Part shown: positions 1 through 64,000 of the stretch, piece after piece
Layout: every line of letters begins with the position of its first letter
How positions within the stretch are numbered: the first letter of the stretch is position 1
Source: Candidatus Altimarinota bacterium
GTDB lineage: Bacteria; Patescibacteriota; Gracilibacteria; BD1-5; UBA2023
Length of the DNA stretch: 64,000 nucleotides
Direction: 5' to 3'
Assembly (NCBI GenBank): GCA_043741945.1
Contig: JAYTZT010000001.1
Coordinates: 152,559-216,558, forward strand
Position numbers and translations under genes: made by a program
Notes under the pieces: model-generated
The model's database searches: none
Seen by the model: the letters and a program-made list of their open reading frames with translations, nothing else
What the model was told of the DNA's origin: nothing

Positions 1-899
1 TATCCCTCTACCGTGAAGTCCTCATATTTGAAACTAAATAGATCTTTCACATCAGGATTGATCTGCATAATCGGGAATGGCCGAGGCGTATGAGTGAGCT
101 GTTCAGTCACCTGATCATAATGATTGTGATAGATATGTACATCACCGAATGTATGGACAAATTCTCAGGGTTGGAGTCATGCAACCTGTGCGATCATCAT
201 CGTGAGGAGTGCATATGATGCGATATTGAACGGTACTCCGAGGAACACATCAGCTGACCGCTGATAGAGCTGACATGACAGCTTACCATCGGCAACATAG
301 AATTGGAATAGTGTATGACACGGTGGTGGTGCTGTGTCCTTGTCTTTGATGAGTTCCTCGATCTCCCCGACATTCCATCCTGAGATGAGATTGCGACGGC
401 TATAGGGATCGTTCATGAGGGTATTGATCACGATCTGCATCTGATCTATCACATTCCCTTTTTTGGTTTCCCAGGCTCGCCACTGCTTCCCATAGACAGG
501 ACCGAGATCACCCCACTCGAGTGCGAACTCGGCATCATTTTTGATACGATCGATGAATACTACGAGCTCTGCATCCCACTCTGAGCTATAGCGAGGAAAC
601 TGAGCATCTTTTCCAGTTTTTTTGAGATACTTAGCGAACGCCCACTCATTCCAGATCTTCACATCGTTCTGCACGAGTGGTCGGATATTGGTCTCTCCAG
701 AGATGAACCACAGGAGCTCATGGATGATCCCACGGATGAATACTTTTTTGGTAGTCAGGAGTGGGAATCCCTCAGAGAGATCAAACCTGATCTGATGACC
801 AAAAATAGAACGAGTTCCTACACCAGTGCGATCCATACGATCCACACCAGTATCCATAATTTTCTGAAGCAAGTCGAGATATTGTTGTTCTGTATGCAT
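1..899 (-). CDS. thyA: thymidylate synthase ThyA (3' end runs off the window start)
   Basis: ORF 177..899 is a canonical ThyA ([27 protein letters not shown]). Reading TGA at 177-179 and 165-167 as Gly continues it as [21 protein letters not shown]..., the conserved C-terminal ThyA block. Confidence 0.95.
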
Positions 900-910
900 A
901 GATATAGGGA

Positions 911-1387
911 TTAGGAATTGCGAATGAGAGAGATGAATCGACCCTGAGAAAAATCAGAGCTCGATACTTCATGGAAATTAGAGCGGAATTCCGATACTCG
1001 GATATCTCACTCATGTTCACCATCCAGGAGTGTGAGCTCTACTCGATCGACGAGTACATGAGCAAAGAATTGATCATAGAGCGAGGCTCATCCGATCAGC
1101 CATACTTGCTCGATTTTTTCTGTTTGCATAGCCGAGATAAAAAGCTCAATACTCGAATAGCACTCCAGTCCATCTATCGGTGTGCGAGTGATGACGATAT
1201 TGCGACGATGAGGCAGTGGACGGAATTTTTCTGGCAGAGACACATAGGTATTGCGACCCATCACTACTATACCGCCAGCGGTGAACTCCTTGAAGCGATT
1301 CATATCTTCGGGAATGTGCCATGGAAGTCCATTTTTGTTACCGATCAGGAGCGTCGGGTCCATAGCAAGTATAGCTGTGATTTGCAT
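911..1387 (-). CDS. folA: dihydrofolate reductase
   Basis: ORF 1088..1429 carries the DHFR core ([35 protein letters not shown]). TGA 1088-1090 read as Gly gives LIGGASLY and runs to TAA 911-913. Start placed at ATG 1385-1387 ([10 protein letters not shown]), 11 nt after the dut stop. Confidence 0.9.
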
Positions 1388-1397
1388 AAGTAGTACT

Positions 1398-1826
1398 TTA
1401 ATTGAGTCCTGTCGTCCCGAATCCACCACGATCAGTTACATTCATCATATCTACCAGTTGGAACTCTGGCTTCTCTATCTTCACGAACATACCTTGTCAG
1501 ATTCTCTCCCCTTTTTTGATCACTACCTCTTCTTTTCGCATATTGATATAGGCGAATTTGACTGTATCAGCATCTCCGCAATAATCCTGATCTATAATAC
1601 CGATACTATTGACCTGCATGAGACCATAGTTCTTGAATGTACCTGATCGAGGAGCAATAACGAGACAGTATCCCTCTGGGGTTGCGATCACCGTCCCAGT
1701 GTCGACGAGTTTCCACTCTCCAGGAGCAAATACGACATCCTCGAGTGCCTCGAAATCGAACGCACAGGCCCCAGGAGTCTTGTACTCGAGAACCTTTCCT
1801 GAACTATTTTTGATCCGAACTTGCAT
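1398..1826 (-). CDS. dut: dUTP pyrophosphatase (dUTPase)
   Basis: ORF 1497..1826 has APRSG and GIIDQDYCGD motifs. TGA 1497-1499 read as Gly extends it to the C-terminal RGGFGTTG motif and TAA 1398-1400. Confidence 0.9.
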
Positions 1827-1894
1827 AGATAACCAAATCTTAAAAAAATACCTTCAGATTATATAAAAATAGGAGGATTTTGCTAGTGAAAAAT

Positions 1895-2230
1895 TTATTT
1901 TTTCTCGATGATTCTCAGAGACCGAGAAATGACAACAAATCCATATGCCCAGAGTACTGGGAGCCAAATAGGCATAATCCCAAAGAGGCTATTACGAATG
2001 AAAACCTCAACACCAGTCGAGATAAAAAAATACTCAAAAATCAGCATAGCAAAAAATCCTATAACCAATATCAGATATTCTCATCTATTATACTGCAAGA
2101 AGAAGCTCGTAAAAATTATCAGGAGATAGATACCGCAGAGAATCCAGTCATCCTGAATCAGAGGGATGAGTCCAATCATCAGAAGTATTGGAAGTGCTTG
2201 AATCAGGATTTTGTAGAATTTTTTGCACAT
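1895..2230 (-). CDS. small integral membrane protein (about 111 aa), function unknown
   Basis: ATG 2228-2230 to TAA 1895-1897 with one internal TGA. The translation (MCKKFYKILIQALPILLMIGLIPL...IMPIWLPVLWAYGFVVISRSL) is strongly hydrophobic. It is on the same strand as the surrounding dcd/dut/folA/thyA string. Confidence 0.5.
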
Positions 2231-2390: not shown

Positions 2391-2933
2391 TTATTTTTTG
2401 ATATAACCTACCATATTATTTTCTCCTTCTCCATATCTACCGACTTTTTTGTAGTCTTGCTCTGGAGGAGAAGTCATTTCAGCAAAGAGAAGTTGCGCAA
2501 TATCCATACCTGGACGAAGAATGATAGGTACAGAGTTCATATTGGCGAGCTCGAAAGTGATATTGAGATAGTGACCTGGATTGATGAGTCATGCAGTATT
2601 ATGGACAATGAGGCCGATACGTGCCAGAGATGACTTACCCGAAAGTTGTATAAGATATTTTTCAGAACCGAACTTCTCTATACTCGTACCCAGGACCGTC
2701 ACTCCAGGGCGCAAAATCAATCCTTGTTCAGCTGTGACGATGAGTTCTTCGTACTCTGGCAGAATATGATTGATGGGATCAATATTTATTACAGAATAAT
2801 CTTTTACAACGAGGAATCTATTACCAAGACGGATATCGTAGCTTGCAGGCTGAAGACGACTCACATCAAAATCCGAAATAGAAATAGTACCAGAATCTAT
2901 AGAAAGACGGATATCACGGTCGGAGAGATACAT
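2391..2933 (-). CDS. dcd: dCTP deaminase
   Basis: MYLSDRDIRLSI...SYDIRLG...VHNTA, then TGA 2589-2591 as Gly gives GLINPGHYLNITFELAN..RPGMDIAQLLF. Ends at TAA 2391-2393. Start taken at the internal ATG 2931-2933, which matches the usual dCTP deaminase N-terminus. Confidence 0.9.
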
Positions 2934-5217: not shown

Positions 5218-5276
5218 TTTATTTGCTAAATAATGAAATAAACGGTAGAATACATATTAAAGGTTATTTCCAAACT

Positions 5277-10418: not shown

Positions 10419-11330
10419 ATGCGTATTCTCATAGCCTCTGCTCTTCTCCTCTCACTTGCGAGTTGTACTCTTCCAGGTATGAAAGATAACTCCGATACAG
10501 TAGCTCCTGTGACTCGTACACCTGTTGCCCAGACGACAACAACCTCAACGAGTGCTGTTGCAAGTACTGGATCAGTTGTAACTCTCAATTATACACTACA
10601 TACAGATTCAGCTACTGGACCAATCCAAGAGACGACTCTCCAGTCAGTAGCAGTATCAAGTGGACTATACAAGACAGGTTCTACGTATCAGCCTTTTCAG
10701 GTTGCACTCGGACAAGGTCAGGTAATCCCAGGATTTGAGCAAGGACTCATGGGAGTTAAAAAAGGTGAGAAAAAAATGATCAAAGTTATACCATCAGAGG
10801 GGTACGGTCGTCCAGTAACCGTTCCAAAAGAACAGATTGCACCAGAATTCACACTTACTCGTGAGAAAAAAATGTTCGAAGATGTCCTCACTCAAACTAT
10901 CGAAAAATCTCAGTTCCCTGCAGATATGCAAGCAAAAGTGATGGCCGCAAAAGTAGGAGATACTCTAACTGGAGCCAATAATTCTATAGCAAAAGTTTCA
11001 GAAGTATCAAGTGGATCTATCACTCTCGCTATAGCGAATACTGGTAATCCTTTCTATAAAAAAGCACTCACAATTGGTGCTATGGCAACAAGTTCAGGTG
11101 CAGACTTCAAGATACTCTCAATAAATGGAAACAATGTGACACTTCAGATCACAAACAAAGAGAGTCCATTCTATGGCAAATCATTTGCTGTAGGCGAGTC
11201 TGCAACTCCAAAAAATGGAAGTAAAATTACCATTCAGGAAATCGGTGACAAAACAGTTACAATCCTTGCTGATCACCCTTTTATGGCAAAAGATCTCTAC
11301 TTTGATGTTGAAATCGTAGGAGTTCAATAA
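10419..11330 (+). CDS. FKBP-type peptidyl-prolyl cis-trans isomerase lipoprotein
   Basis: Uninterrupted ORF. Start set at the internal ATG 10419 (MRILIASALLLSLASC lipobox). FKBP core GSVVTLNYTLHTD...FQVALGQGQVIPGFEQGLMGVKKGEKKMIKVIPSEGYG. No TGA codon. Confidence 0.85.
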   Translation: MRILIASALLLSLASCTLPGMKDNSDTVAPVTRTPVAQTTTTSTSAVASTGSVVTLNYTLHTDSATGPIQETTLQSVAVSSGLYKTGSTYQPFQVALGQGQVIPGFEQGLMGVKKGEKKMIKVIPSEGYGRPVTVPKEQIAPEFTLTREKKMFEDVLTQTIEKSQFPADMQAKVMAAKVGDTLTGANNSIAKVSEVSSGSITLAIANTGNPFYKKALTIGAMATSSGADFKILSINGNNVTLQITNKESPFYGKSFAVGESATPKNGSKITIQEIGDKTVTILADHPFMAKDLYFDVEIVGVQ

Positions 11331-11331
11331 T

Positions 11332-11982
11332 ATGTTCATAGTTCATATCATCACCCTCTTTCCAGAGAGTATACGACCATATCTCGATTCCAGTATTATG
11401 CAAAGAGCCCAACAAAAGGGGCTCTTTCAGTATGTACTATATAATCTCACAGATTATAGTGTAAAAAGCACAAGACGTGTAGATGATCGACCCTATGGCG
11501 GATGAGCAGGTACTCTGATTACAGTAGAGCCTCTTACCAGATGTTTGCGCTACATCGAAAGTACCTATAGCAAAATGCCTATACTCCTTATGAGTCCTCG
11601 AGGTGATAACCTCTCACAAGAACTCTCACAAGAACTCTCCGAAAAATCGAACCAATATACGATTATCTGTGGACATTATGAAGGAGTTGATGCTCGGATA
11701 CTAGAGTTATTTGATATTCGTGAAGTCTCAATCGGTACATATGTAGTCTCTAGTGGAGAACTTGCATCGCTCGTCATGATCGATAGTATGGTAAGACTCA
11801 TACCCTGAGTTCTCTCTATTGCATCACTCTGAGAAGAGAGCTTCTCAGAAGGTCTGGGTGGAAAAAAAGAATATCCACAATATTCACGTCCTGAAGTATT
11901 CGAATGAATCAGTGTACCTCATATTTTGCTTTCAGGAGATCTAAAAGAAATCCAAAAATGGAAAATAAAAAATCTCTTATAA
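11332..11982 (+). CDS. trmD: tRNA (guanine37-N1)-methyltransferase
   Basis: MFIVHIITLFPE...VDDRPYGG(TGA)AGTL...ICGHYEGVDARI...VVSSGELASLVMIDSMVRLIPG. Same frame as ORF 11545..11808, ending at TAA 11980-11982. Confidence 0.92.
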
Positions 11983-13948: not shown

Positions 13949-13992
13949 GAAATGATAGTATCATATCTCATGATTAAAAGCAAAAAATGAGA

Positions 13993-15009
13993 CTATCTGC
14001 AACCATCATGAATGAAATCCTTCTCAATCATATCTATGATATCATCCCGACCCCTGAGAATGATACCCATTTCTCTATTATTCTCGATCGCATTGTTCGT
14101 GAGATTATGACTGCCGATAAATACTCGAGTATGGTCTACAATGATGACTTTCGCATGGAGATAGGGTTTTCGGATCATTTTCCAATGCCAAGATGGAAAC
14201 TCGAGCATACGACTCCGATTTGATTCATTATCTGCAGTGCATATTTCTATATTTTTCTTCTGATGATAGAGTTCTCAAATAAGGGTCAGCATATGTTCAT
14301 CATCAAGGGTTTGTACATATATCACGAGATCTCTTTGGGTAGACAGTATAAGGGTCTCGATTTTGGATCTGGCATCAAGCGGTGACATGACCATATGAGA
14401 TGGAATACTCGAGATATCCTTGTATCCCATATGTGTAGAATCTGCTCGAAATACAGTCTCAAGAAACTCGAGTGTAGTAATATCGTTTGCGGTATAGATA
14501 TATTCCCGATTTTTGGTAAAAAATGATGCCGTCCAGTTCCCGGTACTAATACAGTAAGTATTGTCAATAATCCAGAACTTCGCATGTGTAAAAGAATACC
14601 GGTGATTATCGGCATATACAACATTGATTCCTGCATCTTTGAGTTTTTTGGCTATTGGCATATTGATACGAGGAGTTCCGAAAACATTGCCCTCAAGTAC
14701 TACCGATACATCGACTCATCGAATAAATGCTCTAATAATTGGATCTATTAATTTGGCAGCATCCGTCCAAGTATATATTTCGATCCAGATTCGATTTTTG
14801 GCATTCTCTATGCGACTTAGTAGTTCATTCTGAGTATACGAATTTGGGAGAGACTCTACTCGACCATCAAATTTGGGTAGTTCTATAGGTGCTACGCTTA
14901 TTTGGGATCATATCTCCGGATTTTCACGAAAAAAATGCTCATGATACGGATTGGAACAACCCGAAATAAGAAGAAGAGGAATAAGAATATAGATTTTTAA
15001 AAGAATCAG
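13993..15009 (-). CDS. phospholipase D / cardiolipin synthase-like protein with two HKD motifs, probable lipoprotein (start codon unresolved)
   Basis: HKD motifs FTHAKFWIIDN..STGNWT and YLHAKVIIVDH..IGSHNLT in same-frame ORFs 14275..14661 and 13993..14208. The frame stays open upstream to a lipobox (ILIPLLLISGCSNP), but there is no ATG/GTG/TTG between it and the in-frame TAG at 15061-15063. Confidence 0.8.
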
Positions 15010-20153: not shown

Positions 20154-20762
20154 TTATTTTGTAGATAATAAGATCTTAATACCAAGAATAGCAAGGATTC
20201 CTCACATAATCTTATTTAGGTAATATTGCACTGATGATATATGTGATTTGACAGATCTTATATTAATAAGAGTTGCCAGTATAACAAACCATAATCCAAC
20301 GATACTCGCCATCATAATTCCATAGCCAACTTGAGTCATAAGTGAAGTATTTGAGTTTATCACTTGTGTGAATACTGAAAGAAAAAATAAAGTTGCTTTT
20401 GGATTGAGCACATTCGTGATAAAACCTTGGCGAAATGCAGAAACTAGTGACTGATTCATGGAAGCTTCTATAGATTCAGATTCATTCTTTCAAGAACGGA
20501 ACAATTGATAAGAAATATAGAGAAGATAGAGTGCTCCAAATATTTTGATTACTGAAAAAAGAACAATTGACTGTGAGATAATAATCCCAATTCACGCAAT
20601 ACAGTATGCCACATGTACCAATGTAGCCAATCACACGCCAAGAGCGGTCATGTAAGCGAGTTTCTTTGTTTTCAGGGCATTCTTCACAACAATAATCATA
20701 TCTGGGCCAGGTGATATGGCTGAAAGAAGAGTTATAGATGCAAGGATAAAAAGTTCAGTCAT
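20154..20762 (-). CDS. LysE/RhtB-family amino-acid exporter
   Basis: MTELFILASITLLSAISPGPDMIIVVKNAL... joins ORF 20202..20459. The gap was checked codon by codon. TAA 20154-20156 abuts the next start. Confidence 0.8.
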
Positions 20763-20786
20763 AGTATGTGAGAAAGATAAAAAAAA

Positions 20787-22568
20787 TTATACCAATTTCT
20801 CAAACTCCTCCACCATCTTCTCAACCTCTCGGAGTCCAGACTGATAGAAGTCTACTGAAGCGATATCTATACCATATCGAGAGAGGATATCTCGAGGTCG
20901 CTCAGATCCTCCTGAACGCAGAATATCCTTGTAATCTTCTTTTGTTAACTCACCAGATTGTACCTTGTTATAGAGTGTAAAAGTGAGCAAATTGCCAAAA
21001 GCATACGAATAACAATAAAAGGGAGTATGGAAAATATGGGGAATCATAGACCATCCGCTCTCATCCTCGGGGGGTATATCATGGACTACTGTACCAGCAT
21101 AGAGCGACTCCTGTGAGTTTCTCCACATCCGATTGAGATCCTTGTATGAGAGTTCTTCTCCTGTATGGATCTGAGTATGGACAGATCGCTCGAAGATAAC
21201 ATACTGTACTTGACGAAAAATAGTGGAGAATATATCTCACAGTCGCTCATTGAGGTATTCTCTATATTCTTCTGGAGTGATGAGAGACTTTATTTTTTCC
21301 CCAAGTAACATCTCTGAAAAAATAGAGGCAGTTTCTGCCATAGAAAGGGCTGAATCATATACGGGATCTTCTTGTCACTGAGAAAGATGACCATGTATGG
21401 CATGTCCGAGCTCATGTGAGATCGTCGAAACATCTCTGAGCTTCCCTGTGAAATTGAGAAGAACAAATGACTCTTCTCATTTTCGATACGAGGCATAGGC
21501 TCCACCTCTCTTCCCTGCAGTAGGAAAAACATCTATACGTTCCTCTTCAATCATCTTTTTGGAATACTCATAGAAATCAGTATCAAAGTCCTTCATCACG
21601 GAGAGATGGAGATCATATGCTTCATCAAATGTGAATGACTTATCTACGGTTCCCAGTGGGGCACCGATATCATAAGTCGCAAAATTTTCCTGAAGTCACA
21701 ACATTTTTGCCTTGGCACGCAGAAATCTCTGATACAGTGGGTAGGCTCACTCTACCTCTGAAAGGAGCATATCGACGACTCCATCATCCATCTCTTCAGA
21801 TATATTACGCTGTGCCATGACGGTATCTGGATAGCCTCGCATCTTGATCTCTGAGCTCCAGTCCTTCACAATACTCGTATAGATATTTCCAAGTGATATC
21901 TGAGTTTGTTTAGAATTATATATCCGACGCAGAGATTCAGAGGATTCTCTGCGTACATTGCGATTGGTATGTTGGCGATAGCTCCTGACTTCTTCTTCGC
22001 TGAGTTTTTTTTCTTCACCCTCTATCATCATCGTGAACTCATAGGATCCTGTGAGCTCATCATGGAGGGAATTTGCGAGTCCTAGAGGACGAGACTTTAG
22101 ATTGAGGACTTTTTCTTCGGCTTCTCAGAGAATATATCGGATACTGGTAGCTGTAGAGAGGAGATCATTTTTATATTTTTCAAGGGATGGGTTATTTGCC
22201 CAAGATATTATTTGGTCATATCCTATTTTTTTCCAACCCTGAGCCACAAAAAGGAGTCGATTCGAGGCTTCAGTATAGATATACTCTATCTCGCCCATCC
22301 GCTTCGTAATGGCGAGATCCTGAGTATCGAGAGAGGATCGATAGAAGAGATAGTAGCTCGGCGTTGCTATATTGTGAGACATAGCAGTATAATCTGCATA
22401 AAAATCAAGTATTTGATCAGACGTTGTAAAAGTATGAAAAGTCTGCTCATACTTTAGAACAAATTTCTCAGTAAGTGGAAGGATATTAGCAACATCACTA
22501 GCGAGATTGCTATCATCGAGTCCAGTATAAAAGTAGCGGGAAAGATTCCACTTGGTTGGATATGTCAT
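20787..22568 (-). CDS. pepF: oligoendopeptidase F (M3B metallopeptidase)
   Basis: Same-frame ORFs 22125..22568, 21747..22031 and 20787..21128. The HELGH zinc motif is in frame at 21402..21416 (TISHELGHAIHG). Confidence 0.85.
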
Positions 22569-28708: not shown

Positions 28709-28794
28709 AATAGAAAAAATAAAAAAATAAATATATTTACCGAGATTCTCACCTCGCACCTATCCGCTAGAGCGGACAGGATGCCAGATAACAA

Positions 28795-46000: not shown

Positions 46001-48865
46001 CATAGTACTGATACTATAGTATCTGGTACTTCTATCACAGGAAAGAGTCTCGATCTCGATACAAAGTGACTAAAATCGGGTGAATATTTCTTGCGTATCC
46101 TCCCCATTACGAAGGTGGGAGTTGAACCACCTAAAGAAACCATCTATGAAACACTTATATATCTCACGGGTAACTTCAACAGCCGTGATAGTACCCTACG
46201 CGTAATACCCGAGAAAACAATATATCAAAACGGTGAAACCGCTCATATACTCATTACAACCCCATTTTCGAGCGGTGGATATCTCTATATTACTCGCGAG
46301 CGAGGCGGAGTAATAGACCACGAGTATGTTGCCTATTCTGGATCAACATATACACGAGACTATCTCATCGATGATTCATTCTATCCCAATGTATATATCG
46401 GAGCTATTGCATTCCCTAGAGGAGGAACGATTGATCGTGGATATGCCGTCGGATACTCTGAGATTATTATGGATCTGGCAGGGAAAAAATGAAAAGTGAG
46501 CATCATACCAAACAAAGAAACGTATAAAAATCGTGAAATGATTACTATCGACCTGACGCTAACCGACAAATCAGGTATATCACAACCAGGAGAGATAGAA
46601 GTGATGGTCATCGATGAGAGTCTCATCCGTCTTCTGGGTAATATTGACCTCGACATCATCCCAAAGTTTTTCCAGAAATATCCATTCACCATGAAGACTG
46701 CATTGACAGCTATCGGTATAGAACGCAATCGATTCCTCTCTCGTAAAGGGTCCAACGGTGGAAGTGGTAACAAGTGAGGAGATGGAGCTCAGATATCAAC
46801 TCGAACCCTTTTCCAGAATACTACCTATTATAATCCATCGATTCTCACAGATACTAAAGGTAAGGCAAGGGTCACATTTCAGCTCCCGGATAATGTCACA
46901 GATTACCGTATTATAGCGATCGGACAAACCAAATCATCTCAATTCTCAGTCAGTGAAAAATCGATTGCAGTCCGTCGAGACTATACAATCGAAGTATATG
47001 CCCCGAGTTTAGCTTATGCAGGTGATAATACTACTATTACAGCATCATTATTTAATAGTACTCCTCGTATAACACCTGTAAGCGTATCTCTCGATATCGG
47101 TACTGGCGGTACTCTACTCAAAAAGTCAGAAATGCTCATCTTAAATCCGAGTCAAGCCATTGCTCACGACTTCAAAGTGGAAGTATGAAAAGTATGGAAT
47201 GGAGATATTCCATATACAATCACGATTCGAGAAAAATGAATCGTTCTCGATAGTATTACCAAGACACTCCATATTGCTCCTCCACCTATCATTGCTGATG
47301 TGAACCGAGTATCTGGTTCTACGAATACTGGAGTGGTTGTCAGCCTACCTCGCCCTGGCACAAATACAAACGGAGAATCTCGGGTCACCATTTCAGTATC
47401 AGATAGTCCACTACAAAATCCAGAGCGAACCATAGCATCGATGATTTCCTATCCCTATGGATGTATCGAACAAACGATTTCGAGTACACTTCCAAATGCT
47501 ATAGCAATACAACTCGCATCGAGTTTTGGTATCTCTATAGATCTGAAGACGGTCAAAAAAAATCTAGAAGATGGAGTTGCAAAAATACTCAAAATGCAAG
47601 ATCCTACAGGTGGCTGGAAATACTGGGAAAATGATACAACTCCAAATGAGCATATAACCCCTTATGTGATTCGTTCACTCTATGAGTTTCGGAAACTAGG
47701 AGTTATAATCCCTGATGATGTTTTCAAGCGAGGGCTCGATTTTATTGCGAATACAGTAATACCTGAGGATCAGATGGATCAACGAGCAGAGATATTCGCG
47801 ACCCTTGCTCAGAGCAAGCATGCTAAAGCCAAAGAATTACAAGCAACTATCAATCTCCAAAAACTCTCACGACATGGATATCTGATGTACTCAGTAGGAC
47901 TCGCATCAATCGGACAACTGGATATAAATATGAAGAAGAATCTCGAGACTCGTATGAGTTCTCGCAATAAAGAATCATATTGGTACTGGGACGATACAGC
48001 AGATCAGTCTATCTATGCTCGCCTACTCCTACGAATTGGGGATAGAGAAAAATCCAGAACTATCGTTACGAACATGCTCAGATGAGTAGATCTAGAATCT
48101 TACTATGTATCGACTCAAACCAAGATTCAACTCTTTATGGCCCTTGTAGAACTCTCATCGGGAAACGTTTTTCTCTCATCATTCCAAATAGTTACTGGAA
48201 GCCTGAAAATACCAGTCAATGGAAAAAAATGAGTTCATAGGTATAGTTACAATACTCGGCGATCACTCATCGGAAACACACTCGAGATATCTGGAGTCAA
48301 ATGATCAGGCAGCATCTACTATGAAATCAGTCTCCGCGATGAACCAATCGATATATTCCAAGTTGCACCAGTATCTCATCCTGAGATGGGAATAAATCGA
48401 GTATTTGAAAAAGTTGATGAGTCAAAAGGACTAGATGAAAGAGGGCAGTTCTTATCAGCAAGTCCTATTACCAATGGGATTTTTCGCAAGTGAGAACTCT
48501 ACCGAGTCCGTATCACTGTGACTCCTAAACCAGGAAATACACCAAAATACTATCTGACTCTCGAAGACTATATACCGGGCGCATGGAGACCGATACAATC
48601 TATGTTCAAAACTGAAAGTTCGAGTACTACAGATAATAATAGTGAATATGGATACTGGAATGGATGGACCCATGTAGAATCTCGTATCGATCGTATATTC
48701 GCCACTCAGGAGTACGCGGGTCAAACAGATCTTCCTTATACCTATATCTACTATATTCGACCAGAATATATTGGCATCTACCTACTCCCCCCAGTTACCG
48801 CTTACTATATGTACCAGCCGGATATCCATGCCACTGGCAAATATGAAAAAATACGGGTACAATAA
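43088..48865 (+). CDS. alpha-2-macroglobulin-family protein (1925 aa), N-terminal membrane anchor, thioester motif present
   Basis: Nine same-frame ORF fragments. All inter-fragment gaps were translated and contain only TGA. MG-domain signatures (YVHADRKLYLPGDIVYIKGIIR; APLGAYKIEV; TLFQNTTYYNPSILTDTKGKARVTFQLPDNVTDYRIIAIG). Thioester context ISYPYGCIEQT with CIEQ at 47462..47473. Anchor LLILLATISVGLLGFYAY. Confidence 0.88.
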
Positions 48866-48907: not shown

Positions 48908-49354
48908 ATGAAATGTCCAAAATGCCGCAATCTCGATACTCGTGTGATCGATTCTCGTACTACGGATGATGGTAAAGCGATCCGTCGTCGTCGTGAATGT
49001 GAGAAGTGCAAATCACGTTTTACTACCTTTGAACGACTCGAATTTGTTTCCTTTATGGTTACCAAATCCTCAGGCGAGCTCGAGCCCTATGATCGTACCA
49101 AGATCGTGAACTCTATGCTAAAGGCCCTAGTAAAGAGACCATTTGATCCAGATAAACTCGAAGATACTATCAATACCCTCGAAAATGAGTGGGCACAAAA
49201 TAAACAGGCTATAACCTCTAAACGTGTCGGGAAAGATATACTGCGAAAACTCAGAGACTTTGATGAAGTAGCATTTGTCAGATATGCTTCGATCTATCAC
49301 AATCATGACAATGTGAAGGGATTTGTAAGATTTATTGAAGAAGAACTCGGATAA
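48908..49354 (+). CDS. nrdR: transcriptional repressor NrdR
   Basis: MKCPKCRNLDTRVIDSR...RRRRECEKCKSRFTTFE zinc ribbon plus an ATP-cone. Uninterrupted ORF. Confidence 0.95.
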   Translation: MKCPKCRNLDTRVIDSRTTDDGKAIRRRRECEKCKSRFTTFERLEFVSFMVTKSSGELEPYDRTKIVNSMLKALVKRPFDPDKLEDTINTLENEWAQNKQAITSKRVGKDILRKLRDFDEVAFVRYASIYHNHDNVKGFVRFIEEELG

Positions 49355-49358
49355 CTAT

Positions 49359-50333
49359 ATGACCTCTATTATCACTATCATACCACTTCAATCAGCCAAA
49401 CTCGAAGCTCCTTGTATCTCAGCCGAGATACTCAGCGTGATCGAAAATATAAAGCAAAGTGGTAAAAAATCTCTAATATTTTATTCACGTAGAGGGAATG
49501 CGAGAGCTTGGATATGTGCTGACTGTGGCCACTATGAGAAGTGCCCACACTGTGATATTGCATTCGCCTATCATACAATTCCTCATAAGTGTTTGATTTG
49601 CCATCACTGCAATCAAGTCGCGGCATTCCCTATTGTATGTCCAGAGTGTCATGGCTCACATATCAATCCCGTATGAGTCGGCATACAACAAATCGAGGAC
49701 AATCTCAAGAAACTCCTTCCAAAAGATATACAACTACTACGTATTGATAGTGATACTCGAGAAAAGGCTGAAACTCTCTACAGTGAGATACATACGAGCG
49801 ATATTGTGCTGACGACCCAAATAGGCGGTACAATTATCCATCCTGAGATAGGAGCCGTTATCTGGCTTTCTTTTGAACTCAATCTCTCTATTCCCTCATA
49901 TCATATTGAAGAGGATATCTATAATGAGATCTCATACTACAAGAAACAAGGTCTTCCTCTCTATCTTCAGACGTATACACCCGATCATCCTCTTCTCAGA
50001 GAAATTATGGATGGGAATACGAGATCATTTCTATGATATCTGAGTCGTGAGCGATTAGACTTTAAATATCCACCATTTGCAGAACTCGCGACCATCCGAA
50101 TACATGATGAACAAAAAAAGAAAGTTGAAAATATTATGAGCAAACTTATCCATAAAATATGACTCCTCAAAAAAGAAAGCACCTTTTTAGCTTTTGATAG
50201 AGAAATCCATGAAAAATATGGAGGTGAATGGCAGCAGAAAATAATCCTCAAAGATAAAAATATATCCTATATACTCAGAGAACTTGAGGTAGAGATAGTA
50301 AGAAATCGAAGTGTCACACTCGAATGGAGCTAG
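49359..50333 (+). CDS. PriA-like protein consisting only of the C-terminal half (Cys-rich zinc region + degenerate helicase lobe 2 + C-terminal domain)
   Basis: KSLIFYSRRGNARAWICADCGHYEKCPHCDIAFAYH...LICHHCNQ...CPECHG matches the PriA FLNRRGYA + CxxC..CxxC..CxxC..CxxC block. Same-frame ORFs 49335..49676 and 49806..50036, with gaps checked; ends at TAG 50331-50333. No Walker A/B lobe is present, and nrdR ends 5 nt upstream. Confidence 0.65.
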
Positions 50334-52853: not shown

Positions 52854-54077
52854 ATGAAATCCTTTCCTTGGCAGATACTTCTCGACTGGTATAGACAGCA
52901 CTGACGACACGACTTCCCCTGGAGGCAGTATGATTTGGGTGATATGAGTGGATACCGAGTATGGCTGGCAGAAATCCTCCTCCAGCAAACACAGGCTGAT
53001 AGAGTAGTCCCTTTTTATGAGAAAATACTAAGTAGATATCCTACCATAAAACAACTTGCACGAGCTGATTATGATGAGTTTTTTCCGTATTATCAGTGAC
53101 TCGGTTACTATTCTCGAGCAAGGAATCTACTCAAAACCGCAAAGACCATACATGAAGAGTACGCTAGTATATTTCCAAGAGATAAACAATCACTCAAAAA
53201 ACTTCCTGGAATTGGCGAGTATACTGCTCGAGCTATTCTTGCATTCGGCTATTGAGATCCACTCCTCGCTTGGGATACGAATCTAGAAACAATATTCTCG
53301 AGATATTATAAATGAGCAAAAAATATCAAACTCAGTGAAGATGAGAAAAGTGAAATAGAGAAGGATTTTCAAAGTTTTGTATCTAAAAAGTCTCAAGAAC
53401 AATGAATGGGGGTTCGGAGGGGAAGCACTGTTTCAGCGGTGATGAAATCAGAAAAAAAGAAGAGCGAATCGAATACTGAGCGAGTGCCCCTTTCCCGCTG
53501 AGCGGGATTGGAAATACCCTTGGGATATTGATTCCCCACCGATGCTTTTGATACTTTTGGCAGCAAAAGTATGGAGAATGGTGTCTGAGAAAATGTAATA
53601 GTCCAAAATATCAATAATGGACTCATGGATTGGGCTCGCACCTCTGAGCCAAAAACTGCTAATCTATTGGATCCAGGTAACTATATATTCACAGGTAGTC
53701 AGTTCTATACATCACGATGAACCATTGAAGTGATAGAGAAAAAAACATCTATTTCCTTCCCTACACCTGACGCTCAGGTATTGGTGATACTCCATCAGGA
53801 TCACCGTGTGTACTATTCTCTCGACTCAGAGTCATATTCACTATTTACCCTACCTCCTTCAGAGCACCGAGATACTCGCAAATATGTACAAGACTATTTC
53901 CGTAGCAAATATGGACTCGAACTCTCAGTACGACCAATCCATAAAAAATGGCTCTCCATAGATGGAAAGCCATATATCACCATGAATGCTCAGATACAAG
54001 CTGGAGATGCATCAGTATTCAAACAATACAGCAAAAAAGATATGAAGAATGTTACAGATCACCTGTATTCTTTATAG
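52854..54077 (+). CDS. mutY: A/G-specific adenine DNA glycosylase (MutY-like) with an internal insertion and no Fe-S cluster cysteines
   Basis: YRVWLAEILLQQTQADRVVPFY, HhH-GPD LKKLPGIGEYTARAILAFGYG, catalytic Asp context AWDTNLETIF, and a C-terminal Nudix-like domain in ORF 53730..54077. The frame 53280..53732 was translated codon by codon and contains only TGA. Confidence 0.8.
53403..53590 (+). other. GC-rich, hairpin-dense in-frame insertion inside mutY
   Basis: Locally much more GC-rich than its surroundings. Hairpins: TCCCGC-TGA-GCGGGA (53493..53507), ATACTTTTG-GCAG-CAAAAGTAT (53551..53572), and GGGG..GCACT / AGTGCCCC (53419..53429 with 53483..53490). Four TGA codons in about 62 codons. 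Confidence 0.6.
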
Positions 54078-54522
54078 CATCAAGAAGCATTTCAGTTTCT
54101 CTATCCGTCACCGGTGTGATCGATAGTCGACTTCCCTTTTTTAAGATCTTCATAGTAGAGAACTCGGGAATCAATCTAATCTGACTGATCGAGAGTACCG
54201 CATCAAACTTCTGAACGAATCCGACATCCACACATTGCCATATGGGCTTCTCTCGGCTCGATTTTGGATCATAGTGTTTATCCAGCATATTGAATTGTGT
54301 CTCATCAGCATGTGGAATTGATACCACCTTTGCCAGCCCTACAATCCCAGGAGTCGGGCATGATGAATGGTAAAAAAAAACCAGATCTCCAACTAGCATA
54401 TCATCTCTCATATAGTTACGTGCTTGATAATTACGTACGCCATACCAACTTGACGATCAATCCCGCATGAGGTGATCTATCGAGTATTCCGTGGGTTCTG
54501 ATTTCATGAGCCAAGAAGACAT
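54052..54522 (-). CDS. EVE-domain (PUA-like, thymocyte nuclear protein 1-like) protein
   Basis: MSSWLMKSEPTEYSIDHL...(TGA)SSSWYGVRNYQARNYMRDDMLVGDLVFFYHS joins ORF 54052..54411. This is the classic EVE N-terminal signature. Confidence 0.85.
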
Positions 54523-54589: not shown

Positions 54590-56530
54590 TTACATCGCGA
54601 TCTTGGTCGGTACTCCTGCCACTCCATCGAAGAATACATCGAACTCCTCTTGTGTCATCTCTTCCACTATGAGAAGAGCATTAGCAATATTCTCATGGAG
54701 TTCTCGATTTTTATTGATGATCTTCTGAGCGAGAGCATAGGCATCCTGGAGGAGTCCTCTCACCTTTTGATCTATCATCATACGGGTGTCGTTCGAAATA
54801 TCTTTGCGTTGTCATTCGACGTGATCTGGAGCATAGTTCTCAGCTCAAAGATCAGGATCAAATCCAAATCGCATCACCATAGCTCTCGCTATCTCAGTCG
54901 CTTTTTCGATATCAGATGAGGCCCCTGTCGTGATATAATTAGGGCCAAAGAATATCTCTTCAGCAACTCGTCATCCATAGAGAGTTGCGAGTTCATCGAG
55001 GTATTTTGCCTTGGATGTATAGGTTCGGTCCTTCTCCGGGAGAAACCATGTTACACCCCCTGCCCCACCTCGTGGTAGTATAGAAATCTTGTGGACAGGA
55101 TCAGTATGAGCCAACATCTTCCCGACGAGTGCATGACCGACCTCATGTAGGGCAGTAAGTCGCTTCTCCTTATCTGTCATACGAAGGGATTTTTTCTCAT
55201 TTCCCATCACTACCTTTTCGATAGATTTCTGGATCATATCTTGATTTATACTTTTCGCACTTTTCTTACCTGCAAGTATGGCAGCCTCATTGAGGAGATT
55301 ACCGAGCTCAGCACCAGAGAATCCAATAGTTATACCAGCGATACGATCCCACCTGACATCATCTGCGAAAGGCTTCCCTTTGGCGTGAACTTCGAGTATT
55401 TTTTTACGATCTTCGAGAGTTGGCAAATTGATCGTCACCTTCCGATCAAATCGCCCTGGACGCAGGAGTGCACTATCGAGAACATCAGCTCGATTTGTAG
55501 CTGCTATGATGATAACATTGGTTTCATTATCAAATCCATCCATCTCCGTGAGGATCTGATTCAGAGTTTGTTCACGTTCGTCATGGCCTCCTCCTATTCC
55601 AGGTGACCTCTTTTTTCCGATCGCATCAATCTCATCAATAAATATGATCGATGGTGCATGCTCACGAGCCTCACGGAAAAGATCGCGAACACGAGCAGCA
55701 CCCACACCAACAAACATCTCGACAAATTCAGAACCAGATATAGAGAAAAATGGAACCTCACTCTCCCCAGCAACAGCACGAGCGAGAAGTGTTTTACCAG
55801 TTCCTGGAGGTCCAACCATGAGGATACCTCGTGGGATTTTGGCTCCAAGATCCTTGTACTTGGCTGGATTTTTGAGAAAGTCAACAACCTCTTCGAGATC
55901 AGATTTTTCTTCATCAGAACCAGCTACATCAGAAAAGGTAACCTTCTCATCAAGTTCTGGGTCATACATCTTTGCTCGACTTTTTATAAATTGCATAGGA
56001 TTCGCCATCCCACCACCACCCATACGAGCCATCAGAAATAACATCAAAAGTAAGAATACTATAGTCAAAGCAACACTTGGGAGAAAATCCCATAATGCCT
56101 TGGACCAGTCATTATTTTCGATAGTGACTCGGGTAGGATTGCTAGGATTCGAGAGTCCAATATCAGTGATAGAGACGTTCGCTGGGAGTATAGTACGGTC
56201 AATATCTCGCTTTGTGAGAGTCTTTCCTCAAACAACATTTGCCATTGCCTGTTTGCGACCTTCTATACGATTACCAGAGATAACGATCTCTTCATATGAT
56301 CACGACTCATAGTTTTGACGGATTTCATTGACTCCGATCTTGTCATTATAATTAATAGTCTCAGTACTAGTCTGAGCCCACAAACTATACAGTGCCCAAA
56401 TAAGTGAAATACCCAAAAGTGGGAACAGAAAAGTTCGAGGAGTAATTTCAATAATTTTGACTTTAGTATCTTTCGGGATACGAAACACAGGTTTTTTTGA
56501 AGTTGATTTTTTAGTATTTTTCGGTGCCAT
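54590..56530 (-). CDS. ftsH: ATP-dependent zinc metalloprotease FtsH
   Basis: Same-frame ORFs 56300..56530, 54971..56068 and 54590..54781, with gaps checked. Walker A GPPGTGKT, Walker [12 protein letters not shown] region [19 protein letters not shown], zinc motif HEVGHAL. Confidence 0.95.
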
Positions 56531-56610: not shown

Positions 56611-56952
56611 TTACTGCGAATACCGAATCTCAAAAGTGAAATATAAGTGATCACTACGAAAATCAGTACTCGCAGATAGATCTACTAGGATGGCTCGGAA
56701 TCGATTCAAATCAGTATCAGAAAAGGCTCATTCCAAATGATCAAAACCGGAAAATATAAGGTGTATTCCAGTGAGTATTTGTGGCATATCTCAGAAAATA
56801 TCTGACCCAGGATCGAGTGAATTCATCATATCAAAAAGGGCATCCCAATTGTTTCCAAAATAGGAAGGAAATGAGAAAATATGAGAAAACTCCTGAAATA
56901 ATTCATGAGGAGTAATTATCTTCGACAAATCTATATATATTTTCTTGATCAT
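56611..56952 (-). CDS. barstar-family ribonuclease inhibitor
   Basis: MIKKIYIDLSKIITPHELFQEFSHIFSFPSYFGNNWDALFDMMNSL follows the barstar pattern (FP.YYG.N.DAL.D.L). Extended through TGA 56791 and 56728 to TAA 56611-56613. Confidence 0.7.
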
Positions 56953-58071: not shown

Positions 58072-59550
58072 TTATCTCTTTTTTCTCGGCTTCTTTTTAC
58101 CAAATGTATCGACTTTTTTCTCCGCGAGTTTTTGCTCCAGTTCCACAATCTCTTCTCCAAAGTGATCCTCACGAGATCCTCCTTGTTCTTTCGGCTTAAA
58201 CATACTCTTCCGACTTCTGAGTTCGAGCTCTATCGGAGTACCTTCGAATCCAAATATTTCACGGATCTTATTCTCTATATAGCGAACATAAGAAAAATGA
58301 AAATGATCCGCATTGTTAACAGATATCATGAATTTTGGAGGATTGATATCTACTTGTGATCCGTAATATATACGAGGCTTATGAGACTTTCGATTTCCAG
58401 TCGGAGCATGATCATACGTGATCTGTTCAAGAAACTTATTAAATACTCATGTTTTTACTCGTTTATTTCGCTCCTCTCGAATCTTGATAGCATGTTCAAG
58501 AACGAGATCAATCCGTTTATTTTCGATAGCTGTAGTGAACACTACTGGGGCATACGAGAGAAAATCAAATTTTTTCGAAAGATAATGCATATATCTCTCG
58601 AGAATTGTATCCTTGTTGACTCCTGACTTATTCATCACCTTATCCCACTTGTTGATTACGAGGATAATTCCCTTCTTTTCTTTCATTGCTTCACCGACGA
58701 TATGCTCATCCTGATGAGCTACTCCTTCGAATGCATCGATCACAACCGCAACCACATCTGATCTCTCTACGGATTTCTCAGCTCGCATCACACTCCATTG
58801 CTCTATATTCGCCGATCCTATCTTACCTGCACGACGTATACCCGCCGTATCGATGAGCACAATATCCTGATCATTAAACTTTATAACGGTATCGATAGCA
58901 TCTCGTGTCGTACCAGGCATATCAAATACTATGGATCGAGTTTCTCCTGCTATAGCATTGACAAGCGATGACTTACCTACATTTGGACGACCGATAATAG
59001 CTAAACGGAGCATCCCTTCGTGGAGCTCGTTTGGTACGAAACCGAATCCTAACTCCTTGAGCATCTCAGCAACTTTGGCTCTTAGCTCACCGAAACCACG
59101 AGTCTGTACAGCACTCACTGGAACGACGTCACCGAGTCCGAGACTCATATGTTGGTAGGCTTCGAGGGCTCTTTTTGGATTGTCAGCCTTATTGGCCACT
59201 ACGAGAACTGGTTTCTTGGATCTACGGAGTAACTTGACGATATATTCATCGAACTCCGTCATACGATCATACTCGACCACGAAGAGAATGAGATCAGAGG
59301 CCGCGATAGCCTCATTTGCTCTCGCTCGTACATCTATGAGCAGTGTCTCGTTATCGGCACTCACAATACCTCCACTATCAGCCATCATATAGGATATCTC
59401 GTTCTCAGAATCATCGATATGGTACTCGATAATATCTCGAGTCGTATTCTCGATATCGGAAATGATGGCGATACGATGTCCTGAGAGCGAGTTAAATATA
59501 CTCGATTTTCCGACATTTGGACGACCGATGATGGTGACGCGAGCAAGCAT
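58072..59550 (-). CDS. der: ribosome-associated GTPase Der (EngA) with a Lys-rich tail
   Basis: Two G domains (GRPNVGKSS twice, DSGG / DTAGIRR, NKAD / NKWD) in ORF 58447..59550. TGA 58447 leads into the KH-like domain in same-frame ORF 58072..58329. Confidence 0.95.
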
Positions 59551-59635
59551 AGTATCTATAGTTATTGGATTATCTTTTCTTTTGTATTATTTTCTGCACA
59601 GTATAGTGAAAATAGAGAAAAAGCAAATTAAAGCA

Positions 59636-62600
59636 CTATTGCATCGTATAGAAAAAATCGATACGATATTCTATATCAGCTATCACACTTCCATTTTGGA
59701 TAAGTTCTATATCCATAGAGCCCCTTTGAGATCCATACCTCAAAATAATATTCTTATCTAGGCTATAGATATTACCACTTCGATCCACTGCTGCGAGGGC
59801 ATGGTATGTAGAGTCGGTGACATATACACCTCAAGGGATAGAACCATCTTTGGAGCTCGCAGAAATAATTCGAGTTAACCCACTGCGTGGGGTCAAGAGG
59901 ACTCCCTGAGTCATTGGAGTGGAAGCTTTGGAAGTATCGATAAAGGGAGTATTTTCGGGAAGTGAAATAGTATGTGTATGTGATATGGATCCAGATTCAT
60001 TCATGATGAGTATCCGCATTGGATCTGTTGAAGTAGCAGGTACAACCTCGCTATGATATCCCGACTGGAGTTGCATAATACCTCTATTCGAAATCGTTCC
60101 AAAATCTGTAGTATTTCTCAGAGTGATAATCTCGGAAGGTCGCAAAAATGAATTTGATACAAACGCTCATCAAGAATTCGAAAGTGTCGCTCCTGAGCTC
60201 AAAAGAATAGGCCCCTCCCCTGGTCTAATACGGAAAAAATGAACGGGAGTATTCTCAATTGGTTCAGGGAGTACACCGATAATGGTACCAGTTTCGGTCA
60301 CTCTCTGTATCTGAGGGATCAATGCATATGACTCAATAGTAAAAGGCGTACTGGTAGTATTACCAATCTCATCAGTAGCCGTGAGGAACATACTGTGATT
60401 TCAAGGTTCCTTAAAAGGACCAAATGATAGGTCTTGACTCGTTATACTAAATCCATTACCAGAAGTAGTAAAATCATCTTCAAATATACCATTCCCATTG
60501 TCATCAGTAGATGTATCTCCATCGATAGTCATAATCACAGCACTCTGATCGGTGAGGATATCTGCAATACTATATTTCTTGGTGGAATATATAGGAAGCC
60601 GCAATCGTGAAGGAATATCAAGGATAGGTGCTCCATTATCACTTGCAGCCTGAGGTGCGAGTAGCACTACTCCTGCTCGGTCCTTTTTTTTATCAGTCAG
60701 ATTTTGTAATCTTGCATAATAGTATCCATTGGAATATGGAAGAGATATTTGGTATTCATCGGATTTTTCTCAAAGATCATAGGTAATATAGGTGGCTCCA
60801 TCTTTGAGAGGAATATTCTGATTGGTGGTATGATTGCGTAATTGGGCTCCAGCATCCGATGCATAGAGACGCATACCTGGGAGGATAGGTAATCCTATCA
60901 ACTCGTCTGAATAGGTATATCTAGAATTGTCTTCTCAGCCGATGAGATAGAACTGTCATCCATTCGTGATAATTTCGGTACTCTCCACGAACTCATATCC
61001 CGTGTAGGGATCAAGGGTGATTGTTTTGGGAGTTGATGTTGTTTGATTGGTATACGTGATCGTAACACTCTGATCTCCTGTATAGAGAAGTCGACCTGCT
61101 GAGAGAGAAATCGAAAGGGCACCCGCATAAACATCTATACTACGACCCTCCAAAATGAATGAAGATTGGTCACCAACAGATGCAAGTGAACGACGCACAG
61201 CGTGAGTGAGGATAGCTGGCTCATCTAGTGCGGCAATAGCTGGAACCTTAAGTGATATATCAATCGTTGTTTTTGGAGAGATCTGTGGATTATGATCTCC
61301 GATATCTACATGGTCCCACTCCGTATACTGATCATAGAAATCGAGTCTCCACTCAGTTTCCGTAGAAGATGCAGGAACAAATGTGAAATTGATATTTTTG
61401 GGACTAGAGATACTTGAGTGGAAATAATCAGGCACATATGGAGGCAGATCATTCGCAGAAATGTCTGAAATTTTCTTTGTATTGTCGATTATCTTATTTG
61501 GAGTATTAAGCCATGAATACTTGACGTAAAGAATGCCATCCAATACATACATATAATCTGTATCTCCATCTTGGTCAATATCTATGGATTCTATATGCGT
61601 ATCAGGAGTGACTGGTGAAGTATAGTCAAAGAGACGAGTCTGGATACCACTTGGTGTACGTACATATATTCCCTGATAGTTCGGAGTATATCCACTTGTA
61701 ACTGGCTCAGTAGCAGAAGAAAAACTCGAGGTAGTTGCCGCAATCATATTAGAGACTTTTTGTTGGAGTGTTCTCTTCGAAAGATCGATTCCTCATTGTT
61801 GTGAAGTTACAGTTGCATCCGTTCTCAATCACACTGAATTTTGGTAGTTATTAAATTTTTCAAGAAGACGAGTCGAGCGAGATGTCCCTTCTTGTATATC
61901 TGATATAAGTTGTCTAGGTTCATCATGGATATCTTTTTTGAGGAGATCGACAATATTCTGAAGATGAGCCGTATTATCATTCTCTGCTACAATATAGTCT
62001 TTGATCAGCTCAAATCTCTTATCATTATAGCTCATGAGCTCATTTTGAAGAGTTTTAGCTTCTATCTCGGTCGTTCTGAGTTCTTTTTTGAGAGAGAATT
62101 GATTATGAGCGAATTCTGGAGTGCTCAGTTGTCCGATGAGATATTGAGTAAATTGCCCTACTTCTAAAAATATATCCTTCTCCTTAGTGAGAGTATCGAG
62201 CATGGTTGCTACTCTCACAGGAAGGACTTCATCAGGATTTTTTGGAACATAAGAACTCGGCTTTATATTTACCTGAACACTCGGAATGATGACATCAGAG
62301 CCAATTTTTGATGGGATTGCCATTTGCATATCCGTCTGGAATGAGTTAATGGGTCTCACCACTGACCGAGCGAATTCTGAAATAAAATCAGATCGAATTT
62401 CGTAGTTTACATGACTCGAAACACGGATTTCTCGTAGTGTCGGAAGAGTAAATTGTGGAAGATTGAGATTGATAAAATCGAATGGCGAAGTTCCTTGACG
62501 CTCAGTTCTCTGCGCTATAACATCTCCGGCTTGCCATTCGGGAACGAGGGCAGTTTTCTGATAATAACAGTACATCTTTGATATCAATTTCATCACACCC

Positions 62601-64000
62601 AAAAATGCTGAAATAGAACCTGCAATCTTTGGCAGTTTTGGTGGAGGTGGAAGATCTGGAAGCTTGATTCGAGGAAGGGATGGGAGATCTGGAAGATCGG
62701 GAAGAGGTGGCAGTGGAGGGAGAAGCGGAAGAGCCGGTAGTGTTAAAGAGGCTCGAACTGATCCGATAGACAGATTCGGAAGGTTCGGAAGTCGAATTGG
62801 GGAGATCCGTGGGACAAAATTGGGGAGAGCCACATTGATACCAAATCGGATATCCGAAAGATCAAGAATAATATCAGGCCACTTCGGAAATTTGATAATA
62901 GGTATAGATGGGATAAGTGCGGAAATGAGCTTGAATTTCCAATATTGCAGGTTGTTTCGCTCGTTGCGACAAACTCAACAACTTGCACTGGTGTCAGCAA
63001 AAATATCCAGAAGCGGTTGCCAGCTGTCTGCAATACCCTTTATGAGAACAAAAAGTTCTGCCCACTTACGAAATCTCAGCCCATTGTTACGAAGCCATCC
63101 ACTCGTTATCTGTTGAATAGTATTGATATTACAGAGAATCTGAGCGATATATCGTTCTTTCCAGGTGATATATTTCTGGATCTTCATCGGGAATTTTTTG
63201 TATTCTTCAATACGCTTGAGGTTTTGTCTAATACTATTGATAAGTGGTCCTGATTGGATCTTGGCTTTTTGATCCAGACATGTTGCAGAGGGATCAGTGA
63301 TACAAAAATTCTTTCCTGCAATCTCCAGTTCTCTGAGATAGCCATTAAGAGATCTCGCATACTTATCCAGCTCTCTTTTATCAATCCATGGAATATTGAG
63401 AGGAATATTCACTTGTCTGACCGTGATAAATGGGAGTTTCCCAATAAGCGTATAGGCAGCTTTGAGACTATTGAGGGTTCACTTAGTATTGGATATGGTG
63501 GATTTGAATGCATCTGGGATGGGGGTCGTATCAGCTTGTTTAGAATCAAATGCTTGTGACATTCCCTGTTGTATATTTTCCAAATTAGCACTCGAATAGG
63601 CTTCTCCGAGTTTCTTGGAGAAGTCCGTATAGGTAGTATCTACATGTGCATTCTGTCCGAAGTCAGTTGGAGGTATGATCGTGAGGTTTGGTGGAGTGAA
63701 GAGAGAGGTAGTGAGCTCCTCAGTCTGACGAGTCAGCCATTCCATAACAAAATCCGGAAATGCCGCAATTCGCTTATTTTTGATTTTTGTAACAGCACTG
63801 ATATCTAATAGCTTTGTATCTGGGTCTACTTCAATAGAGAACTCCGATCCTCCACTCGATGGAGAGCCTATAGTGAGAAGAGGTTGCCCCGAATTCAATC
63901 TCGATCCTCGTCTACTGATACTGGTATAGATACTAGTGAGTCGCGTCGTATCAGGACTCTTCAAATAGTTTACTATACTATTTGTAAGACCTTTATTTTC
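59636..64000 (-). CDS. giant secreted/surface protein, C-terminal 1454 or more codons (5' end beyond the window)
   Basis: Seven ORF fragments (63479..63964, 62975..63412, 61829..62833, 60956..61747, 60401..60667, 60170..60391, 59831..60145) share one frame. Every gap was checked and contains only TGA. Ends at TAG 59636-59638. Contains a Pro/Leu LPxLP repeat tract and two Asp-rich calcium-binding-like loops (DIDQDGDTD, DGDTSTDDNGNG). Confidence 0.8.

Follow-up and report, generated by a model that had tools for sequence, protein, structure and literature searches.

TGA as a probable glycine codon across 64 kb of DNA assigned to Gracilibacteria

Why do most open reading frames (ORFs) of a bacterial contig segment end at TGA when they are called with the standard code, and which amino acid, if any, does TGA stand for there? 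The question is raised by a stretch of 64,000 nucleotides assembled as Candidatus Altimarinota bacterium (GCA_043741945.1, contig JAYTZT010000001.1, positions 152,559 to 216,558), which we call, at its full length, the window. Our analysis makes it very probable that the window is chromosomal DNA of Gracilibacteria using NCBI genetic code 25 (table 25), at which UGA would be an ordinary glycine codon and translation would stop at UAA and UAG only. Table 25 in its known host lineage is already a known phenomenon and not a discovery; in Gracilibacteria, also named BD1-5 or Candidatus Altimarinota, it was described by Rinke et al. 2013 and Hanke et al. 2014, as cited in PMC8629427 and PMC11452946. 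An initial annotation of this DNA had proposed the same code and had stated that it is known only from Gracilibacteria and Absconditabacteria, which matches the Codetta survey (PMC8629427).

The window shows TGA acting as sense, with read-through in almost all of its genes. Under table 11, 366 stop-to-stop ORFs of at least 60 codons were found, of which 222 (61%) end at TGA, 73 at TAA and 71 at TAG, in line with the initial annotation, which had standard-code ORFs ending at TGA. When TGA was taken as sense, stop-to-stop ORFs of at least 300 amino acids (aa) rose from 5 to 31 and extended up to 1971 and 1454 codons. The gain is specific to TGA, and control recodings of TAG or of TAA as sense gave 6 such ORFs each. 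The curated map of the window (positions 1-64000, both strands, GC 38.9%) holds 56 genes covering 91% of it, with 243 in-frame TGAs spread over 51 of the 56 and the frame kept across every TGA. No in-frame TAA or TAG occurs in about 19,400 codons, and the 55 complete genes terminate at TAA (37) or TAG (18). If TGA is counted among the glycine codons, it makes up about 18% of them. The two longest cases are as follows.

43088-48865, plus strand: alpha-2-macroglobulin-like (A2M-like) giant gene of 1925 aa with MG2, A2M, TED and bMG10 domains; relatives have it too, in a syntenic position
59636-64000, minus strand: giant gene of at least 1454 aa, its 5' end beyond the window, with a proline-rich LPxLP repeat stretch

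Under table 11 the former, with 24 in-frame TGAs, falls into 25 fragments and the latter, with 11, into 12. These counts replace the nine and seven pieces given in the initial annotation, in which probably only the long pieces had been counted.

If the standard code were nonetheless in use, the TGAs would be real stops and the window a pseudogene graveyard or an assembly or sequencing artefact. In fact, the public data contain table-11 calls on the same DNA as short fragments (Logan contigs L002 and L004). Yet the genes are broken by TGA only, with the frame preserved at each one, and the standard code would leave none of the essential alaS, ftsH, der and trmD intact. Moreover, sequence 100% identical to the window is present in Logan contigs (each of at most 25.8 kb and none reaching beyond the window) assembled independently from two sequencing runs, SRR22198262 and SRR23617261, and in relatives the TGA positions are kept or swapped for GGN. 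The zero count of other in-frame stops, together with conservation across strains, already refutes the standard code, whose probability here is virtually nil.

A subtler possibility is that UGA has a dual role, being glycine inside genes and a terminator at some gene ends, or selenocysteine at some sites. A few TGAs do lie 7-15 codons before a TAA or TAG stop, as in the MFS gene. However, TGA is placed evenly along genes, without enrichment at the 3' end, and orthologue alignments cross the TGAs, including the last one, reaching 0-11 residues from the C-termini defined by TAA or TAG. Therefore TGA is no terminator in any gene examined. The earlier claim that all genes end at TAA or TAG is sustained by this even spread and by these alignments, but it is partly true by construction. 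As for selenocysteine, the sites are far too numerous, are spread over unrelated genes and are aligned with Gly, Cys faces window TGAs once or twice at most, and the tRNA(UCA) of the clade, described below, differs from a long-arm tRNA-Sec in that its variable loop is short and its acceptor identity that of Gly. We consider a dual role of UGA exceedingly improbable.

The gene map had to be curated by hand, as greedy longest-ORF calls with TGA as sense gave spurious antisense ORFs (g1, g2, g3, g7, g12, g22, g32, g40 and g47), which were corrected. With TGA as sense, antisense ORFs grow long enough to oust real genes from automatic calls. A PLD-like gene at 13993-14661 on the minus strand, which has two HKD motifs and PF13091 matches on its table-11 fragments, was ousted by a 254-aa antisense ORF at 13987-14751 on the plus strand that lacks a family match. 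Similarly, the conserved FlmR_OhkR_N gene at 32264-33019 was overlapped by a miscalled 153-aa ORF on the opposite strand.

Which amino acid TGA stands for was approached along three independent lines that do not presuppose a translation table, and all three support glycine, as the initial annotation had proposed for the whole window. For the first line, TGA was rendered as X in the translations, which kept the amino acid open, and these were compared with solved-structure homologues from standard-code organisms, which keeps the comparison from being circular. Nine families (ThyA, TrmD, UvrC, FtsH, AlaRS, PBP1A, TsaD, SmpB and MutY) were aligned to their homologues in the Protein Data Bank (PDB). 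The genes are these.

3-899, minus strand: thyA, truncated at the 3' end by the window edge; TGA faces Gly at 177-179 and at 165-167 (3 of 3 alignments shown)
11332-11982, plus strand: trmD; the TGA at 11503-11505 stands for the third Gly of PYGGG (CCC TAT GGC GGA TGA GCA GGT), and solved TrmD structures have Gly opposite 3 of its 4 TGAs
25218-27029, minus strand: alaS, in a short 603-aa form; 3 of 4 aligned TGAs face Gly
29743-31614, plus strand: PBP1A gene (Transgly and Transpeptidase domains), with 15 TGAs in the ORF as first called; 2 of 8 aligned TGAs face Gly in PDB homologues
33609-34058, plus strand: smpB, with 5 TGAs, one of which, in the conserved GKK motif, faces Gly
36789-37766, minus strand: tsaD; the TGA in the conserved G-x-T-x-DDAAGE faces Gly
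38586-40565, minus strand: uvrC, with 14 TGAs; D-G-G-K-G-Q is written GAT TGA TGA AAA TGA CAA at 39099-39116, and 5 of 5 PDB-aligned TGAs face Gly
52854-54077, plus strand: mutY-like glycosylase gene; Gly is opposite TGA both in W-x-G-LGYY and in the helix-hairpin-helix region
54590-56530, minus strand: ftsH; E. coli FtsH has Gly opposite the TGAs at LYG-X-R and FG..L-X

In total, 37 TGA positions could be aligned, and 21 of them face Gly (binomial P ~3e-14 against an assumed Gly background of 8%), no position faces Trp, and the other 16, in variable columns, have various residues opposite them. The glycines at which TGA stands include near-invariant motif ones, namely those of YVGKA and D-G-G-x-G-Q in UvrC, PYGGG in TrmD, TGL.PGE in ThyA, LYGGR in FtsH, G-x-T-x-DDAAGE in TsaD, GKK in SmpB and GLGYY in MutY. 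The initial annotation had already placed TGA on invariant glycines, and the columns tabulated against orthologues, with ThyA, TrmD, UvrC, FtsH and AlaRS among the nine families, bear it out. Its coordinates for the TGA codons of UvrC, TrmD and ThyA, and for the one at 1088-1090 (minus strand) in the dihydrofolate reductase (DHFR) gene, proved correct; the esterase motif GFSQ-X-A and the terminal Gly of the Nudix box (REL.EEL-X), both carrying TGA as X, as well as the EVE motif WYGVRNY with TGG for Trp, are all visible in the translations.

The second line was drawn at the codon level from 27 orthologous gene pairs with two syntenic relatives, a 1.29-Mb JGI contig (L006) and the NCBI assembly GCA_014377305.1 (L007). 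Codon pairs were counted from the best non-overlapping orthologue pairs, which avoids conserved antisense shadow ORFs, with the following result for both relatives together.

Window codon TGA: GGN 48, TGA 57, TGG 2, other 41 in the relatives
Window codon GGN: GGN 404, TGA 102, TGG 2, other 160 in the relatives
Window codon TGG: GGN 0, TGA 2, TGG 97, other 12 in the relatives

Thus TGA is swapped 150 times with GGN as against four times with TGG, and TGG is kept as TGG in 97 of 111 pairs. From these counts, TGA behaves as a synonym of GGN and not of TGG.

The third line comes from UvrC homologues in a large protein collection (entries P0001-P0120), in which 111 of the 119 related sequences show an excess of Trp and look translated with code 4, that is, with TGA as Trp. 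In code-4 translations, G can arise only from a GGN codon. Among these 111 homologues, 11 of the 14 columns facing window TGAs are almost purely a mixture of G and W, with G 701, W 502 and other residues 232 over the window-TGA columns, and such a mixture is seen neither at real Trp nor at any other UvrC column. The other eight sequences, several of them NCBI entries, were apparently translated with code 25 and have G at those 11 columns.

These results also bear on code 4 itself, under which UGA would be Trp. Table 4 is used by Mycoplasmatales, Entomoplasmatales and several insect endosymbionts, and it is implicitly assumed by the public Logan and JGI gene calls for this clade. Code 4 shares with code 25 a UGA that is sense, and it restores ORF lengths equally well; heuristics based on ORF length or coding density cannot separate the two tables. 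In the database, the window's own UvrC (P0001) has W at 14 of 14 TGA positions, yet this false Trp reflects the table of the pipeline and is not a measurement. Unlike UGA in table 4, that of the window falls on Gly columns, faces no Trp in solved-structure homologues and is exchanged with GGN rather than with TGG. Furthermore, TGA as Trp would raise the Trp content to an abnormal 2.4% and would put Trp in place of invariant Gly in DGGxGQ of UvrC, PYGGG of TrmD and AQVTGL.PGE of ThyA. With TGA as Gly, the composition would be 7.0% Gly and 1.1% Trp, and TGG is then the sole Trp codon of the window. The alignments already refute code 4, and we hold it to be extremely unlikely.

The choice between the tables matters in practice, and it is there, in annotation and database hygiene, that the value of the present analysis lies. 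Every gene model of the window depends on table 25. Table 11 fragments the genes, and table 4, which coding-density heuristics favour, turns every UGA-encoded Gly into Trp. A wrong code would mistranslate about 1.2% of residues and 18% of glycines, and the affected catalytic motifs would include DGGxGQ of UvrC, PYGGG of TrmD, GxSxG of the esterase and the Nudix box. Such errors harm homology searches, structure prediction and the building of profiles for candidate phyla radiation (CPR) proteins.

To which organism does this DNA belong? The best named matches and synteny support its origin from uncultured Gracilibacteria (BD1-5 or Candidatus Altimarinota), in agreement with the initial annotation, which had traced the contig to the CPR lineages with this code. 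Among the UvrC homologues of the large protein collection, those with a name that come closest (46-68% identity) bear the labels 'Candidatus Gracilibacteria bacterium' and 'Candidatus Altimarinota bacterium', and NCBI taxid 363464, now Candidatus Altimarinota, is the taxid given for Gracilibacteria in the Codetta paper (PMC8629427). Gene order is largely common to the window, GCA_014377305.1 and the 1.29-Mb JGI contig. The genes found in one or both relatives are those of MFS, the priA-C-like protein, nrdR, the A2M-like protein, dnaJ, uvrC, tsaD, the DsbA-like protein, rsmB, smpB, PBP, rplJ and rplL, and amino-acid identity between the window and GCA_014377305.1 ranges from 64% (A2M-like) to 95% (NrdR). 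As in Gracilibacteria with table 25, in-frame TGA stands at conserved Gly, termination in the window is at TAA and TAG only, closest homologues and gene order agree, and tRNA(UCA) with Gly identity is present on related recoded contigs; the GC content of the window also lies inside the range of 0.21-0.53 reported for table-25 clades. Nothing substantive differs from these Gracilibacteria. The species-level lineage is not among the GTDB representatives, as judged from an exact 60-mer of the window (58501-58560), which had no match in GTDB representative genomes; another exact 60-mer (63941-64000) had no match in JGI metagenome contigs or IMG/VR.

It could be argued that the code is indeed code 25 and that the host is a member of Absconditabacteria (SR1) instead. 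The SR1 code is said to go back to Campbell et al. 2013. In Absconditabacteria, UGA is Gly and, in addition, CGA and CGG are Trp (Shulgina and Eddy 2021, PMC8629427). UGA as Gly is common to both lineages, and the basis for the placement in Gracilibacteria is best matches and gene order. On the other hand, all named close homologues are labelled Candidatus Gracilibacteria or Altimarinota, and the window shares its gene order with a Gracilibacteria assembly (GCA_014377305.1). In contrast with Absconditabacteria, the window uses CGA (219) and CGG (59) freely in 18,299 codons, and in orthologues these are aligned with Arg or Lys codons and never with TGG. CGA and CGG are still Arg here, plain table 25 applies, and Gracilibacteria is favoured over SR1. 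The Codetta survey reported CGG reassigned to Trp in some Gracilibacteria as well (PMC8629427). An SR1 host seems to us very unlikely.

Some points weigh against the reading of the window as Gracilibacteria DNA with TGA as glycine. The 16 PDB-aligned TGAs outside Gly columns face D, N, E, S, A, K, L, V or R, and one of PBP1A, at 30211-30213 (residue X177), stands where the 'YLN' motif of GT51 glycosyltransferases usually has a conserved Asn. The lineage call has best matches and synteny as its basis, the window being without an rRNA gene. The window proved free of tRNA genes in ARAGORN, and so did loci L001, L003 and L005-L007, among them those of the two relatives; no release-factor domain was seen among the annotated genes of the window, which is 64 kb and not a whole genome. 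Moreover, TGA as Gly is known here from comparison of sequences. With regard to the first of these points, the non-Gly columns facing TGA vary within the lineage. The JGI relative L006 has Asp at the Asn of 'YLN', from which it follows that the lineage has relaxed that motif position, and at the other PBP1A TGA positions it has TGA, GGA or polar codons. Few TGAs of PBP1A fall on Gly because they are mostly in variable columns.

How would UGA be decoded in such a cell? It is established for the lineage that a tRNA-Gly(UCA) is dedicated to UGA and that release factor 2 (RF2) has been lost (PMC8629427, PMC11452946). By extension from the lineage, the UGA decoder of the window's organism would be a tRNA-Gly(UCA) bearing G1:C72, C2:G71, G3:C70 and U73, and RF2 would have been lost, leaving no competitor for UGA. 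We scanned a metagenome collection with a structure-anchored pattern (anticodon UCA, T-arm and C70-G71-C72-U73), and 5 of the 120 returned stretches are real cloverleaf tRNA(UCA) genes (contigs L016, L032, L053, L057 and L113). Without its encoded CCA, each of the five measures 76 nt; the acceptor starts with GCG, position 73 is U and the variable loop has 4-5 nt. ARAGORN labels them 'SeC' because of the anticodon only. On all five contigs ORFs lengthen with TGA as sense, and in L057 (GC 37.8%) the number with at least 150 aa goes up from 3 to 17.

The tRNA(UCA) gene of L057 lies at 2721-2799 on the minus strand, upstream of nrdR at a distance of about 750 bp. Next after nrdR comes a priA-C-like gene, and this pair shares 62% and 30% amino-acid identity with the corresponding pair of the window (48908-50333). 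The place that the tRNA has beside nrdR in L057 belongs to the A2M-like and dnaJ genes in the window and in both relatives (L006 and L007), and no tRNA is found there. Likewise, when the five recovered tRNA(UCA) sequences served as queries, nhmmer and blastn gave no match in the window, L006 or L007. The mechanism by tRNA-Gly(UCA) is thus shown for the wider clade and would hold for the window's organism by inference. It is worth adding that the 64-kb window and 44 kb from two relatives carry no tRNA, tmRNA or rRNA gene, which is somewhat below expectation for a genome of about 1.2-1.3 Mb.

Use of TGA is uneven. Its share of glycine codons differs among the genes of the window (chi-square P ~1e-4), being highest in uvrC, holA, PAP2 and smpB (36-42%) and low or zero in the following genes.

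10419-11330: FKBP lipoprotein gene, TGA-free
28334-29472, minus strand: rplL and rplJ, TGA-free (none of 25 Gly codons)
48908-50333, plus strand: nrdR (48908-49354, TGA-free), paired with the priA-C-terminal-like gene that follows it
58072-59550, minus strand: der (engA), with 1 TGA among 32 Gly codons

Taken together, rplL, rplJ, nrdR and the FKBP lipoprotein gene have no TGA in 55 Gly codons (P ~1.5e-5). In the relative L006, none of 23 Gly codons of rplJ/rplL (20660-21800) is TGA, and TGA makes up about half of the Gly codons in the uvrC and PBP genes of that genome. Such a pattern suggests that highly expressed genes avoid UGA-Gly. Perhaps the lineage does not decode UGA simply by a canonical tRNA-Gly(UCA) with RF2 loss, or the decoding is costly or ambiguous, as hinted by the purging of UGA from ribosomal-protein genes in both the window and L006; we think this unlikely. 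If this is true, UGA-Gly would be a slow or error-prone codon, excluded from highly expressed genes on account of, for example, residual termination or wobble of U34 onto UGG, and regulation might make use of it. Being free of TGA, rplL and rplJ give identical products under any code, and hence they can serve as anchors for exact-match look-ups.

Finally, the window is not of phage origin, its content being cellular housekeeping, which includes alaS, ftsH, der, trmD, ruvC, holA, ribosomal proteins and a dcd-dut-folA-thyA cluster. The remaining features are given below.

911-1387, minus strand: folA (DHFR, PF00186), with the TGA at 1088-1090 in the motif WLIG-X-ASLY
1398-1826, minus strand: dut, assigned from motifs in the translation only
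1895-2230, minus strand: gene of a small membrane protein, between dut and dcd
2391-2933, minus strand: dcd, assigned from motifs in the translation only
37910-38572, plus strand: SRA-like and HNH nuclease gene, adjoining uvrC
40638-41048 and 41752-42252, plus strand: two small paralogous genes of putative lipoproteins, alike in start and tail
54052-54522, minus strand: gene of a stand-alone EVE-domain protein (E = 1e-49), with the WYGVRNY motif
56611-56952, minus strand: gene of a Barstar-family inhibitor, with no recognisable barnase gene alongside

Together with thyA, the first four of these form a compact pyrimidine/thymidylate cluster at 3-2933 on the minus strand, in the order dcd, small membrane protein gene, dut, folA and thyA. 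The architecture of the SRA-like and HNH gene resembles that of modified-cytosine-dependent restriction enzymes, its SRA match being below the Pfam cutoff. Between the two putative lipoprotein genes, about 700 bp contain weak ORFs only, and the two products have in common a start of the form MEKLxxE...IS, a signal-like segment containing Cys and a tail of the form ...(S/T)(T/Q)..C(D/H).

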